Notes: a model not told the origin generated them from the letters alone. Positions 3,442 to 30,109 are shown, numbered from the stretch's first letter. The stretch: 64,000 nt of DNA from Gammaproteobacteria bacterium (GCA_030429735.1 JAUIET010000008.1:74726-138725), one strand, 5' to 3'. Made by a program: numbers and translations.

Positions 3442-4377
3442 ATGGCAGCGAATAAAATACCCAGGTTAATTGCCACTTCGGTGGTTCGCGGAAGCGAAAA
3501 AGGCCAGAGCCATGGCGGTGTATACACAATTGATTTTTCAATTCCGCAGGTAACCCAGCACATCGACTGGAACACCAGCAATATAGATTTTACTGGCCGT
3601 GGTTGGGACAGAGGTTTACGTGGTATTGCGTACAATCAAGAGGACGTCTTTATTGCTGCGAGCGATGAATTGTTTTGTTACAACCCCGATTTTGAGGTGC
3701 GGGCCTCTTACACCAATAGATACCTCAAACACTGCCATGAGATTTGTAAGAAGGATAATTACCTGTTTTTGACATCAACAGGTTACGACAGCCTGCTGGT
3801 GTTTGATCTGGTGGCACGGCAGTTCACCTGGGGCTTGTACATTTCCAGGGACGGTCAGAAATGGCTTGGACAAAAGTTCGACCCGGAAAGCACCGCAGGA
3901 CCACCACCGTCGAATAACTACCATATCAATATGGTTCATGTTAACCAGCACGGCATCTACTTCTCTGGGCTCAACACGAGGGCCGTGTTAAAGGTGGACG
4001 GGCAAATGAACATATCGGAAGTGTCCAATCTGCCGGCCGGTGCCCACAATGCCCGTCCATTCAGAAATGGATTGCTGTTTAATGATACACAAAGTGATGC
4101 GGTGCGTTATGTGGCCCGAGATGGTGCGGAATGTGCGTTTGGTGTGCCGCGCTACAAAGACAGCGAGCTGGATTTTATGGGTGTTGACGACTCGCGTGTC
4201 GCCCGGCAGGCATTTGGAAGGGGCTTGTGCGTGATCAGTGAATCACTGGTTGCAGCCGGTTCTTCTCCATCGACTGTTAGTATTTATGATTTAAATAGTA
4301 GGGAGCGAATCGCAGCGGTGAATATCAGCATGGATGTTCGCAATGCGATCCATGGCCTCGAAGTCTGGCCGTTTTGA
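3442..4377 (+). CDS. Hypothetical protein, function unknown, translationally coupled to the TPR-sulfotransferase
   Basis: 311-aa ORF whose ATG lies 1 nt after the upstream TAA (taaaccATG). No motif I can assign. The repetitive beta-strand-rich composition suggests a propeller-like fold, which is only a guess. Confidence 0.55.
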   Translation: MAANKIPRLIATSVVRGSEKGQSHGGVYTIDFSIPQVTQHIDWNTSNIDFTGRGWDRGLRGIAYNQEDVFIAASDELFCYNPDFEVRASYTNRYLKHCHEICKKDNYLFLTSTGYDSLLVFDLVARQFTWGLYISRDGQKWLGQKFDPESTAGPPPSNNYHINMVHVNQHGIYFSGLNTRAVLKVDGQMNISEVSNLPAGAHNARPFRNGLLFNDTQSDAVRYVARDGAECAFGVPRYKDSELDFMGVDDSRVARQAFGRGLCVISESLVAAGSSPSTVSIYDLNSRERIAAVNISMDVRNAIHGLEVWPF

Positions 4378-16170: not shown

Positions 16171-16257
16171 AACTGGATTATTGGCTGGATATTGGGTAAT
16201 CTTGTTGACAAACATCAGGCTACATTACGGAGGCAGTAGGTGATGTAGCACAGAGGC

Positions 16258-16387
16258 TTTTCGGTGAGTGAGACCTATGCGTGACTGTTTGAGACAAGGA
16301 GGTCGAAAACACCAATAGCAGGCCCTTAAGGGGCGCCCTCAGCAAAGGGTTCACGGCGTATCGCGCAAATATCTCACTCAGCGAAAA
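16258..16387. repeat. Degenerate copy (C) of the long-arm hairpin element family seen at 28599-28862
   Basis: ~27-nt imperfect arms (22/27 complementary) flank a 76-nt loop. The loop ends in gggttcacggcgt, which is identical to the A/B core. It also contains a degraded version of the inner hairpin. Confidence 0.5.
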
Positions 16388-16434
16388 GTCGGTCAATTCA
16401 GATATGCCCAAAACCGCAGTGCGAAGGCTTCCCG

Positions 16435-26984: not shown

Positions 26985-27053
26985 CGTGGTTGCATTTTGC
27001 TTCGCTTGCGAAGCCTCGATCATAGATAATTGCTGGCAACACAACAAGCTACC

Positions 27054-27320
27054 CTAGTGTCCCTTAACATAAGTTCGTACCATTTAGAACCAGCACAATG
27101 GCGTTCTTCTAGGCGTGTTCTGCAGGGAATATCGACTATATTGGCAAGGGACACAACAACGAAGAACGCCATTGTGCTGGCTCCCGGAGGGCCCGCCATT
27201 CGAGGCCTCCAGCTTCGTTGGACTCTTTGCGAATAGAGCCCGCTATTCACTGCAGAGTTCGCCTCGCTGGAGGCCTCGAATGACGGGCTAAATGGTACGA
27301 ACTTATGTTAAGGGACACTG
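27054..27320. repeat. Nested palindromic repeat element E1 (MITE-like): 33-34-bp terminal inverted arms enclosing two long-arm hairpins H1 and H2
   Basis: Arms are ctagtgtcccttaacataagttcgtaccatttag (27054-27087) and its complement (27288-27320). H1 has arms at 27090-27109 / 27161-27180 and a 51-nt loop. H2 has arms at 27191-27213 / 27266-27288 and a 52-nt loop. Confidence 0.8.
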
Positions 27321-27426
27321 GGCGTGTGATTATGGTCTGAGTCTTCGCAGCATACGCTGAATTGTCAGTGCTTATCTATGTGTTGAATCGTGGTTAGCTG
27401 AAAACACGTCAGCATCGATTGCAAAC

Positions 27427-28347
27427 TCACTCTTGTGCGCTGGCCATGGCAGACTGAACCATTGCCTTGATTTCTGCGCCTACCTGATGTCTGCTGTAGG
27501 ACAGAAGCCGCGTTTCCCTGGCGTCGGGCTCATAACTCACCAGCGCACCCGGTCCGGCGAACATGATTGCGTTGGGCAATATAGGGTGATCATCCGAGCG
27601 CACCTCGAGATCTACAGGGGCACCGGCAGCAGATGCCCAGGCTTCCAGATACTCCTTCCAGGTATAGTTTTCGTCACCAATCAAATAGGCTTTGCCGCTT
27701 TCGCCACGCTGTAATGCACCGGCAATCGATTCGGCGACTGATCTGGCGGTGATATGGTTAGTGCCACCTTCCGGTGCGAACAAGGGCAGGTCCGGTAACT
27801 GACCACTAGCGTATGCAATCAGGCCGAGTATGTGTGGAATATCCAGGCCGGGTAATTCGCCAAGAATGAACGGCGCGTTAAGACTGCATACGTTGAAACG
27901 TTCATCGCTTAGTGCACGAACGGCTTCATCAGTAACATGGCGCGAGTGTACATAGGGGTCTGTGTTGATGCGCTCGGGAGCAATCTGTGGATAAAAACTG
28001 CCCACGTATGCAGCGCGGGTGATACCAGCGGCTTTGGCGGCTTCGAAGAATCGAGGCACGGCTTCGTCATTCGCCTTTTTGTAAAATGAATCCGGGCTTA
28101 TTGAGCCGTCCATGGGCAGCTGGCGAATATCTTGAGCGGCTGCAAACACTAAGGCATCGAACCCTTCCAGGCGTCCGTCAGTGACGTCATCCTCTATGTA
28201 GTTGCAACGGATAAACTCTGTGTCCTTCAATGCATGCGCAGCAGGTTTGTTGCGCGACATAATCGTTACATCGTAACCTTGCTCGCTTAAATGGATGGCC
28301 GCGTGCCCGCCAACCAGGCCGGTTCCGCCAACAATCAGAGTTTTCAT
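27427..28347 (-). CDS. NAD-dependent epimerase/dehydratase family (atypical SDR) protein
   Basis: MKTLIVGGTGLVGGHAAIHLSEQGYDVTIMSR. ATG at 28347; an alternative ATG at 28359 directly abuts repeat E2. Confidence 0.8.
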   Translation of the reverse strand: MKTLIVGGTGLVGGHAAIHLSEQGYDVTIMSRNKPAAHALKDTEFIRCNYIEDDVTDGRLEGFDALVFAAAQDIRQLPMDGSISPDSFYKKANDEAVPRFFEAAKAAGITRAAYVGSFYPQIAPERINTDPYVHSRHVTDEAVRALSDERFNVCSLNAPFILGELPGLDIPHILGLIAYASGQLPDLPLFAPEGGTNHITARSVAESIAGALQRGESGKAYLIGDENYTWKEYLEAWASAAGAPVDLEVRSDDHPILPNAIMFAGPGALVSYEPDARETRLLSYSRHQVGAEIKAMVQSAMASAQE

Positions 28348-28359
28348 GTGAGTATCCAT

Positions 28360-28514
28360 CTAGTGTCCCTTACCATAAGTTCGTACGATTTAGCCCGTCA
28401 TTCGAGGCCTCCAGCAAGGCGAACTCTGCAGTGAATACCCAAAACACTCGCGTCGCTCGCGGGGCAGGCTCTAGCGGGCTCTCAATGGTACGAACTTATG
28501 GTAAGGGACACTAG
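28360..28514. repeat. Repeat element E2, a deleted or rearranged relative of E1
   Basis: 27-bp arms ctagtgtcccttaccataagttcgtac / gtacgaacttatggtaagggacactag. The interior shares gcccgtcattcgaggcctccagc + aggcgaactctgcagtgaata with the reverse complement of E1-H2. Confidence 0.8.
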
Positions 28515-28598
28515 ATCTGTGGTGATTTTACTTGTTTGTGGTCTGCCTTCTGTCTGATTAATAAAAAGTAACGCCGGGAAGATTTTGCCTCTAAATCC

Positions 28599-28708
28599 GG
28601 CAGAGTACGTCTGGGGCTGCGGCGGACACGCCGTGAACCCATCCATGGGGGCTTGTTGAAAAGGTCCCTCTTTTCAACAGTCCGCCACAGCCCCAGACGC
28701 ACTCTGCC
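28599..28708. repeat. Long-arm hairpin element A (28-bp arms, 54-nt conserved loop with a 10-bp inner hairpin)
   Basis: Arms at 28599-28626 / 28681-28708 have 26/28 Watson-Crick pairs. The two exceptions would be G-U pairs on the minus strand. The loop cacgccgtgaacccatccatgggggc... contains an inner hairpin at 28654-28679. Confidence 0.8.
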
Positions 28709-28762
28709 TCACTTTTGTGCCAAGAAAATAGGTGTTTTCGGAATTGGCAGGGGCTGAGGTCG

Positions 28763-28862
28763 AGTTCTGGTTGCCATTTTCCGGACCTTCAAAAAGAGGG
28801 ACCTTTTTGAAGAGCCCCCATGGATGGGTTCACGGCGTGTCCGGAAAATGGCAACCAGAACT
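28763..28862. repeat. Long-arm hairpin element B (23-bp perfect arms, same 54-nt loop as A in inverted orientation)
   Basis: Arms at 28763-28785 / 28840-28862. The loop at 28786-28839 is the reverse complement of the A loop: the first 26 nt are identical and the remaining differences are paired. Inner hairpin at 28787-28812. Confidence 0.8.
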
Positions 28863-28969
28863 TGGCCGGCATACTGGCACATTCTGCTCACGGCCGTTGT
28901 AAAGGCGACTTGATCAGGCAGCTGAAAGGTATAATGGAGAGTTACAGCAACATACAAGGAATCTTGGGA

Positions 28970-30109
28970 ATGCCACTTGTTCTTAACGAAGAACAGAGAA
29001 TGTTACGCGACAGCGTACGGGATTTTGTTAAAGACAATGCCAATGTCGACCACTTTCGGAAACTGCGTGACCAGGGTAATGGTCAGCCCTACGACGCAGA
29101 TACCTGGGCCAGCCTTGTTGAACTGGGTATTAGCGGGATTTGTATTCCCGAGGCTCATGGCGGGCTTGAATTTGGATACCTGGCCATGGGTGCAGTGTTC
29201 GAAGAATTCGGCAAGCAGCTGACGGCGTCTCCGCTGTTGAGCAGTGCCGTGTTTGGCGCTTCGCTGATTGAATTGGCGGGTACTGATACGCAAAAATCAA
29301 AGTACCTTCCGGCAATCGCCAGTGGCGAACTGACCGTTGCTGTTGGTATAGAAGAGGGCAGTCATCATGCGCCCCTGTACACCATGTTACCTCTAGTCGA
29401 GTCAGACGCTGGTTTTATTCTGAGTGGCCGCAAAGCTTTCGTAATGGACGGTCAATCGGCCGACATACTGATTGTCCTGGCCAGAAGTTCAGGTGGTCTT
29501 GGCGATACCGAGGGGTTAACACTGCTGTTGCTTGAAAAAGACCCTGCCGGCTTACAGCGCGACAATGTGCGCATGGTTGACAGTCGCGATTACGCTGACC
29601 TTGTGTTTATCGATGCCGAGGTCAGCGCAGACAGCGTGCTGGGGGATGTCGGAGAGGCTTTTGACCCGCTGGTATTGTCCCTGGACCGCGCTCGCGCGTG
29701 TCTGGCGGCGGAAATGCTGGGTGGCGCGCAGGAAATGTTTGACCGGACCATTGCTTACTTGCAGGAACGCGATCAGTTTGGCCAAAAGATCGGTTCGTTC
29801 CAGGCGCTGCAACATCGCGCCGCGGATATGTACACCGAGCTGGAACTGACACGCAGTACAGTAATGGATGCCTTGTCGGCACTGGATGAACAGCGCGATG
29901 ATATTAGCCAGGCAGTGAGTACGGCCAAATGTCGTATTAACGACACCAGCTTGCACATCGCCAACGAAGCGATACAAATGCACGGCGGCATTGGCGTTAC
30001 CGATGAGTTGGATATTGGTTTGTTCTTTAAGCGGTGCCATGTGTGTGTCAATTTGTTGGGCAACAGCGGTTATCACTCTGAACGTTTTGCAGGATTGAAT
30101 GGGTTTTAA
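28970..30109 (+). CDS. Acyl-CoA dehydrogenase family protein (probable non-catalytic partner subunit)
   Basis: ATG at 28970 follows AAGGA (MPLVLNEEQRMLRDSVRDFV). ACAD fold is present throughout. The track start at 28820 runs through repeat B and is rejected. By eye it lacks Glu at both canonical catalytic positions (LLGNSGYH instead of IYEGT; SLDRAR). Confidence 0.8.
   Translation: MPLVLNEEQRMLRDSVRDFVKDNANVDHFRKLRDQGNGQPYDADTWASLVELGISGICIPEAHGGLEFGYLAMGAVFEEFGKQLTASPLLSSAVFGASLIELAGTDTQKSKYLPAIASGELTVAVGIEEGSHHAPLYTMLPLVESDAGFILSGRKAFVMDGQSADILIVLARSSGGLGDTEGLTLLLLEKDPAGLQRDNVRMVDSRDYADLVFIDAEVSADSVLGDVGEAFDPLVLSLDRARACLAAEMLGGAQEMFDRTIAYLQERDQFGQKIGSFQALQHRAADMYTELELTRSTVMDALSALDEQRDDISQAVSTAKCRINDTSLHIANEAIQMHGGIGVTDELDIGLFFKRCHVCVNLLGNSGYHSERFAGLNGF

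Follow-up and report, generated by a model that had tools for sequence, protein, structure and literature searches.

What kind of genetic element carries the same folded interior, in opposite orientations, on two neighbouring stems of different sequence? The question is raised by elements A and B, two 110-nt hairpins in a 64,000-nt stretch of gammaproteobacterial DNA (GCA_030429735.1, JAUIET010000008.1:74726-138725) that was analysed as a whole and is called the window here. The best explanation is that A and B, a divergent pair of the typical kind, belong to a family of structured elements that is old, chromosomal and present in many copies. Below we describe the pair and its family, the strand on which selection acts, and the functions that could account for both.

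The pair and its family

Element A lies at 28599-28708 (inverted repeat I2) and element B at 28758-28867 (inverted repeat I3); the strand whose loops read GGA (hereafter the GGA strand) is minus in A and plus in B. Two hairpins with a shared interior in opposite orientations had been foreseen by the original prediction and are found at these positions, with corrected dimensions: each has arms of 29 nt that are 93% complementary, rather than stems of 28 bp in A and 23 bp in B (B is longer than claimed), and the shared loop between the arms is 52 nt instead of 54 nt. On the GGA strand of A the outer stem P1 is formed by a 5′ arm at 28680-28708 and a 3′ arm at 28599-28627; the arms of B are 28758-28786 and 28839-28867. 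That the arms are unrelated apart from their innermost bases was an overstatement: those of A and B are about 52% identical by position (manual count), and the family has a weak arm consensus, with GG at -17/-16 ... T.C.GGAC on one side and GTCC.G.A ... CC on the other. Inside the arms of A, hairpin P2 (28630-28652, minus) reads GCC-CCCA-UGGA-UGGG-(UUCAC bulge)-GGC with apex C-AUGGAU-G, as indicated by the predicted fold, family covariation and apex counts, and hairpin P3 (28654-28679, minus) has a 10-bp stem and the minus-strand loop AGGGAC, as indicated by family covariation and the fold. In B, P3 is CUUCAAAAAG-AGGGAC-CUUUUUGAAG (28787-28812, plus; 100% complementary inverted repeat I8, also recovered in the fold), and P2 (28814-28836, plus) again has the apex C-AUGGAU-G and the UUCAC bulge. 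Between the elements lies a 49-nt spacer (28709-28757), partly palindromic around GAAAATAGGTGTTTTC, into which inverted repeat I1 reaches.

The window contains the 26-mer CACGCCGTGAACCCATCCATGGGGGC exactly two times, one on each strand, and none of 100 shuffles contains it; all four single strands of A and B have folding z-scores of -9.4 to -11.5, matched by 0/200 shuffles. The inner hairpins (TGTTGAAAAG/CTTTTCAACA in A; CTTCAAAAAG/CTTTTTGAAG in B, reverse-complemented) differ at eight positions that form four double substitutions, all of which keep pairing, just as originally described. The description of A's two arm mismatches was likewise accurate: each is C.A when read on the plus strand and G.U when read on the minus, and the mismatches in the arms of B are also G.U on the strand with the same core orientation. 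Predicted folds are more stable on the GGA strand of each element (A: -83.7 kcal/mol on the minus strand vs -76.6 on the plus; B: -71.2 on the plus strand vs -64.2 on the minus).

Many further copies exist, and their differences are compensatory. An exact scan with the 20-mer GTGAACCCATCCATGGGGGC over one genome per GTDB species returned at least 120 loci. Among the matches listed are Stenotrophomonas, Xanthomonas, Arenimonas, Luteimonas, Marinobacter, Microbulbifer, Cellvibrio, Halieaceae, Methylomicrobium, Saccharospirillum, Rheinheimera, Oceanisphaera, Halopseudomonas, Ectothiorhodospiraceae and Woeseiaceae; three contigs with a Klebsiella label are MAG contigs. Complete copies are all alike in plan: an outer stem that varies encloses the conserved core and, after it, an inner hairpin that also varies. 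A covariance model (R1) built from 78 copies (alignment A2), which is at hand for annotating the family, finds 184 copies in 123 stretches. Copy density, counted more than 1 kb away from exact-core copies, is about 1 per 33 kb, which extrapolates to roughly 100 or more copies per genome in many non-enteric Gammaproteobacteria. In the window the model recovers A (28614-28693, minus; 90.8 bits, E 2.7e-19), B (28773-28852, plus; 93 bits, E 7.8e-20) and a tentative third, degenerate member at 16257-16388 (plus; match at 16278-16367, 17.3 bits, E 0.076 with filters off). This putative copy has a long outer stem, a P3 loop reading AAGGAG and the conserved GGGUUCACGGCGU, carries a longer insert in place of P2, and folds with a z-score of -5.6. 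Together with the GGA loop motif, the functional strand and the divergent arrangement of A and B, it goes beyond what the original prediction contained.

The family matches no described element that we searched for. No Rfam family was found by cmscan against Rfam 15 over 27800-29500 at E up to 10, nor on the elements in a gathering-threshold scan over 12 loci, which rules out an rRNA or tRNA fragment or a known RNA family. By blastn there was no match in 5,426 E. coli genomes (20,395 records). We rejected phage or plasmid cargo on the same kind of evidence, with no match among 2.9 million viral contigs or 50,697 phage records and one weak match only among plasmids. In the literature that could be searched by core sequence, no paper was relevant and none printed the core; the family is apparently undescribed so far.

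Several other features lie close to the pair. A separate repeat with 35-nt terminal inverted repeats (CTAGTGTCCCTTAACATAAGTTCGTACCATTTAG) has copies at 27053-27322 and 28358-28516. The first comprises two hairpins with 23-bp arms and 51-52-nt loops (27087-27183 and 27191-27288); the shorter second copy has one arm and part of one loop only, and is missing from the ortholog L121, a clean insertion by the start of an epimerase-like gene. The public gene call for the neighbouring acyl-CoA dehydrogenase (P0001, 429 aa, 28820-30109) takes the AUG of B's P2 loop as its start, and its orthologs are called at 379 aa, equivalent to a start at 28970; gene callers can be misled by the repeat, which here places the start inside B. 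A perfect TATAAT at 28933-28938, downstream of B, is conserved in all three genomes. A peptide translated from the AUG in the P2 loop was considered and rejected, since the frame enters the variable arm and the AUG is lost in variants with an AGGGAU loop.

Fold, selected strand and turnover

On the GGA strand the unit reads 5′-arm-GGAC-(P3)-A-GCCCCCAUGGAUGGGUUCACGGCGU-GUCC-arm-3′ and folds into a three-way junction of the variable outer stem P1 with two small hairpins, P2 and P3. P1 is sharply peaked at 27-31 bp, P3 is a hairpin of 8-11 bp, and P2 follows the pattern GC(C)-NNN-loop-N'N'N'-UUCAC-(G)GC. Across 95 copies, model partners pair in 94.7% of cells, compared with 34-43% for slid partners, and 27/29 model pairs show double changes; all three helices covary. 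P2 is invariant among exact-core copies and covaries in diverged ones, where its CCC/GGG is replaced by UAC/GUA, CAC/GUG, CUC/GAG or GCAC/GUGC, with 25 and 27 double changes in its pairs and none broken. Arms differ even between copies of the same genome (A and B in the window; the sets in L035, L119 and L008). The proposal that selection acts on a folded single strand is borne out by these pair changes and by the asymmetry of arm mismatches between strands.

Extra material occurs in or near the P3 apex of some copies (L017 at about 3650-3830, L043, L060, L079, L025, L005, L012, L077 and L082), often in the form of further small hairpins with TCC/GGA loops. With its insert L017 has four GGA/TCC loops, and L079 has a perfect GAACCCC-ATCCAT-GGGGTTC hairpin. 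The module seems to be expandable.

The mismatches identify the strand. Arm pairs were scored as Watson-Crick only, and the scoring therefore favours neither strand. On the GGA strand there are 73 G.U vs 6 A.C mismatches in exact-core copies and 39 vs 4 in diverged copies, about 112:10 in total; a first count had given 76 vs 5 (P = 2e-17). G.A, A.G and G.G mismatches are also far commoner than their pyrimidine counterparts. The G.U bias is present in every gene context (20:0 in copies antisense to both neighbours) and in either member of an inverted pair, and which strand pairs better does not depend on how the flanking genes are oriented. Neither gene read-through nor exposure at the replication fork is therefore the cause, and the fold of one particular strand is kept. 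We also rejected orientation relative to replication: copies divide 60:53 by local GC skew and 57:53 by GC3 skew, a test of little power because skew sign did not follow the coding-strand majority, and more weight attaches to the asymmetry being shared by the two copies of an inverted pair.

Orthologous loci separate the fates of arm and core. The acyl-CoA dehydrogenases of two relatives are 89% and 88% identical to the window's protein. In L121 the two elements occupy the same positions, whereas L122, a contig that begins inside B, shows B only. Between the window and L121 the cores are 100% and 98% identical and the arms 41-59% identical, with the arms of each ortholog still paired; the A-B spacer is 67% identical, compared with 46-48% for other unconstrained intergenic DNA. 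The same picture of a conserved core and drifting, paired arms is seen in 17 orthologous comparisons. Because orthologs share positions and cores while their arms diverge at a neutral level, the arms must be part of the element and change where they stand. They turn over at about the neutral rate under a pairing constraint, with the interior under strong purifying selection. Whatever its function, the family thus offers a clean natural experiment in compensatory evolution, combining neutral-rate stem turnover, intact pairing and strand-specific wobble.

A tiny mobile core that targets or creates palindromes, another of the original suggestions, does not fit these loci, where orthologous sites keep both elements and the arms drift in place. 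Arms copied from the target site by a palindrome-creating core were rejected for the related reason that orthologs share elements and boundaries. Nor are there other marks of such mobility: the best 8-mer direct repeat in the flanks scores 6.0, compared with 5.9 in mismatched controls, and neither Y1_Tnp nor any other transposase occurs among 148 flanking proteins, a scan of neighbours that could easily miss a single RAYT per genome. These proteins yield 220 ordinary Pfam families, and the genes between wider pairs are ordinary enzymes, with no transposase or RAYT among them. Gains or losses of copies do occur. One L008 copy has no counterpart at the orthologous L054 site, and a 1-kb A+T-rich insertion in one of two about 93%-identical genomes (L041 6760-7757 vs L030 7281-7302) carries a family copy whose inner arms resemble those of another copy in the same genome. 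Short-read assemblies probably break at the repeat: L122 starts inside element B, and several further contigs end within a copy.

The arrangement of copies is as regular as their fold. Neighbouring copies no more than 500 nt apart are inverted in 38/40 pairs, and in 35 of these 40 the pair is divergent, with GGA strands pointing outward as in A and B (P = 1e-16). Pair spacers are heterogeneous, and pairs are found in tandem, convergent and divergent gene contexts. All copies are intergenic, preferentially just past stop codons; within 60 nt of one, the mRNA strand is non-GGA in 34 cases and GGA in 9, probably because of the divergent pair geometry. Single copies in tandem contexts show no significant preference (24 antisense vs 16 sense, P = 0.27). 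Two wide Stenotrophomonas pairs have tandem repeats in their spacers, with GCTTTGATCTGCTCGG-like units in one (L031 4700-5000) and a repeat translating as NRPIDQST in the other (L101 6150-6500).

Few transcription signals were found around the copies. There is no sigma-70 consensus promoter near A or B, and promoter-like sites on the GGA 5′ side are not enriched over the mirror side. Sigma-54-like TGGCAC boxes were seen by eye in some flanks, with the -12 GC not at the required spacing. A search for the GacA/UvrY box TGTAAG-N6-CTTACA with up to two mismatches found none near copies except one downstream site. The scan for intrinsic terminators at the outer stems found no T-run, the flanks starting GCCAC.../...GA; a terminator module, as had been suggested for the pair, finds no support in this or in the indifference of the better-paired strand to the direction of flanking genes. 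The 17 orthologous comparisons show no greater conservation on the 5′ side of the copies than on the 3′ side.

Beyond the outer stem, Xanthomonadaceae (L031, L058, L088, L113, L115) and Microbulbifer (L008, L054, L057, L062) have conserved extensions specific to their lineage. Stenotrophomonas copies have TTGATC-N17-(C/A)AC(T/C)GT-CG on the GGA 5′ side, Microbulbifer copies have ...CGAA / stem / GCCACC...TACGAAGCACC, and copies of the window's lineage have TTGGCA(C/G)-N4-5-TGA / stem. Such flanks could be promoters, processing sites or extra helices. The commonest neighbours in alignment A4 are acyl-CoA dehydrogenase (4), thiolase (3) and aldehyde dehydrogenase (2) of 148; these beta-oxidation genes are small numbers that may be due to chance, one being the ortholog of the window's own gene.

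Candidate functions

The loops suggest a partner. SELEX on CsrA gives the consensus RUACARGGAUGU, and RsmE-hcnA has the site CANGGANG. Among 95 copies, about 90% have apices that read C-A-N-G-G-A-Y-G: P2 apices are CATGGATG (60), CAGGGATG (11), CATGGACG (9) and others, and P3 apices are CATGGATG (36), CAGGGATG (15), CAGGGACG (5), GAGGGACC (5) and others. The stems beneath vary freely, whereas the GG of the loop never changes and its A is conserved to at least 90%. ANGGA in hairpin loops is named as the CsrA recognition element in a passage of PMC13443453, and GGA-containing hairpin loops with ANGGA are the CsrA motif (PMC9788540). Judged by sequence, a hexaloop A-N-GGA-Y with C-G closure is of the CsrA/RsmA site type. 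The two GGA motifs of each unit are spaced about 23-26 nt, and two identical loops on adjacent hairpins would suit a homodimer with two binding faces.

We tentatively favour, at somewhat less than even confidence, a reading in which the elements are a structured RNA module that clamps a CsrA dimer. The GGA strand would be RNA, and a single CsrA/RsmA dimer would bind both identical loops at once with its two RNA-binding faces. The ~29-bp outer stem, of any sequence, would serve as a rigid, nuclease-resistant scaffold and possibly also as an RNase III processing signal, and each copy would act as a CsrA clamp, titrating the regulator locally or globally. Observation establishes the fold with its covariation, the loop motif, the functional strand, the age and vertical persistence of the copies and their divergent pairing; an RNA on the GGA strand, transcription outward from the spacer or from the unit's own 5′ flank, and CsrA as the partner are what we infer. 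The strand-specific wobble signature and divergent pairing fit outward transcription best; the pairs have the layout that two units read away from a common centre would give, and the 67% identity of the A-B spacer agrees with this. Several observations count against this reading, however. CsrA needs the loops only, which leaves the invariant GGGUUCACGGCGU and the fixed stem length unexplained; selection on each copy would be weak if ~100 copies made up a trans-acting sponge; promoter, GacA/UvrY box and T-run terminator were all not found near copies; the mRNA strand near stop codons is mostly non-GGA (34:9); single copies in tandem contexts show no significant preference for either strand (24 antisense, 16 sense, P = 0.27); and 5′ and 3′ flanks are equally conserved in the 17 orthologous comparisons. 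A bolder version, which we regard as improbable, is that the copies are autonomous sRNA units, typically transcribed in divergent directions from a common spacer, ~100 of which form the main CsrA/RsmA buffer of many non-enteric Gammaproteobacteria, Xanthomonadaceae included, with the 29-bp stem as a processing and stability ruler; they would be a dispersed, repeat-encoded regulator of a global regulator. To our knowledge, no classical sponges of the CsrB/RsmY/Z type have been found in Xanthomonadaceae.

The main rival to the CsrA-clamp RNA, though an unlikely one, is a REP/REPIN-like element that works as single-stranded DNA and for which RNA is irrelevant. Its copies would be kept or spread by a dedicated strand-specific enzyme, such as a RAYT-type HUH nuclease with one gene per genome, that recognises loops and stem of the folded GGA-strand DNA. 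G.T and other G-containing mismatches are best tolerated in DNA hairpins, and the strand asymmetry fits DNA as well as RNA. Presence/absence differences between related genomes and the negative promoter searches near copies also fit, and high copy number, extragenic position, hairpins and inverted pairs are hallmarks of REP/BIME elements according to a passage of PMC2817692. However, a variable stem with a conserved loop is the reverse of a REP, GTAG is not frequent in the flanks, REPs are species-specific but this core is shared unchanged between orders, and the 148 flanking proteins include no Y1 transposase. Moreover, orthologous copies with paired arms at neutral divergence need selection or repair at each locus, beyond a master copy, and the asymmetry of both pair members means that single-strandedness would not come from template exposure at the replication fork.

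Alternatively, the structured RNA could have a partner other than CsrA, either another loop-binding protein or other copies of the family through sense/antisense pairing. UCC-loop RNAs would be complementary without a mismatch, for 26 nt or more, to RNAs of GGA orientation from other loci; both orientations occur in mRNAs, and any transcript that crosses a pair has both. The invariant GGGUUCACGGCGU, the UUCAC bulge and the 27-31 bp stem also exceed what CsrA needs. We nevertheless think a different partner doubtful, less probable than the DNA element, since the two loops agree with the CsrA motif in their sequence, their size and their closing pair, no specific alternative can be named, and selection for pairing acts on one strand only.

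Less probable again is a generic REP/ERIC-like structural role, as an exonuclease stop, a terminator or insulator, or a nucleoid-protein site, in which the GGA loops would be incidental. The 34 copies that lie within 60 nt of a stop codon in the forward (non-GGA) orientation fit such a role, and pairs would act in both directions. Near stop codons, however, the better-paired strand is usually not the mRNA strand (34:9), the asymmetry ignores gene direction, the stem has no T-run, and an invariant 26-nt core with two loops conserved across orders is not needed. Equally improbable is a selfish palindromic repeat of no host function, in which hairpin-templated repair or gene conversion keeps arms paired and homogenises cores: conversion within the palindrome could give neutral-rate yet paired arms without selection, and high copy number and ordinary flanking genes agree with it, but within-genome conversion cannot hold the core identical across Xanthomonadales, Cellvibrionales, Methylococcales and Marinobacter, and offers no reason for the 112:10 asymmetry of G.U over A.C or for GGA conservation atop covarying stems.

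If the GGA strand is a CsrA/RsmA-binding RNA, ~100 dispersed high-affinity sites per genome would alter models of CsrA availability. This would be relevant to plant and human pathogens (Xanthomonas, Stenotrophomonas) and to abundant marine degraders of hydrocarbons and polysaccharides (Marinobacter, Microbulbifer, Cellvibrionales), and would offer a candidate for the Csr antagonists so far missing in several of these lineages. The proposed tie between the family and a global regulator is directly testable.

Comparison with known systems

The CsrA-clamp reading invites comparison with the Csr/Rsm antagonist RNAs (CsrB/C, RsmX/Y/Z and Xanthomonas RsmU, PMC7694677), which share A-N-GGA loops and two sites spaced for one CsrA dimer. 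Each of those RNAs comes from a single-copy gene with a terminator, carries from 3 to about 20 GGA sites and is either expressed under GacA/UvrY control or derived from an mRNA, whereas here, with no GacA box, terminator or Rfam match, two sites sit on a 29-bp stem in ~100 dispersed copies. RsmU itself (PMC7694677) was rejected as the identity of the element, its sequence being unrelated and its primers having no sequence in common with the core; a Xanthomonas filamentous-phage packaging signal (bioRxiv 10.1101/2023.12.30.573655) was rejected as unrelated in sequence. MITEs differ in that no target-site duplication above controls and no nearby transposase is seen here.

Among repeats, ERIC in enterobacteria and Correia/NEMIS in Neisseria are 100-150 nt intergenic hairpins that occur in either orientation and are thought to be active when transcribed. 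ERIC/IRU elements resemble our family as long intergenic hairpins in either orientation that are conserved between species. Their sequence, with a 127-bp enterobacterial consensus, is unrelated, however, with no family match in the 5,426 ERIC-bearing E. coli genomes, and ERIC is conserved along its full length, whereas here conservation is confined to the interior and there are no terminal inverted repeats or target duplications.

REP/BIME/REPIN elements are similar in being extragenic and chromosomal, with ~100 or more copies per genome, hairpins, neighbours in opposite orientations and long vertical persistence. In contrast, REPs are 20-40 nt, have a conserved stem and a 5′ GTAG and are species-specific; the unit here is ~110 nt, the sequence of its stem is free, and different orders share its 52-nt interior, which folds into two more hairpins. 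The 148 flanking proteins gave no sign of a RAYT link, though a single RAYT per genome would easily be missed there, and GTAG is not among the frequent 4-mers in the 25-nt flanks on either side, whose motifs are lineage-specific. The varied arm sequences also speak against an ordinary conserved REP family.

With attC sites the family shares a folded single strand as the thing recognised, one functional strand, conserved structure and variable stem sequence. In attC, the R''/L''-L'/R' boxes (GTTRRRY) are conserved at the stem base and the apex is variable, whereas here the apex is conserved and the base variable; attC sites form same-orientation arrays by intI, whereas these copies are dispersed among housekeeping genes and arranged in divergent pairs. 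A conserved loop on a variable stem is thus, as the original prediction held, the opposite of the pattern in both REP/BIME and attC, with arms that vary and an interior that does not. Together, these comparisons describe a dispersed, structured intergenic repeat that is apparently new to the literature.
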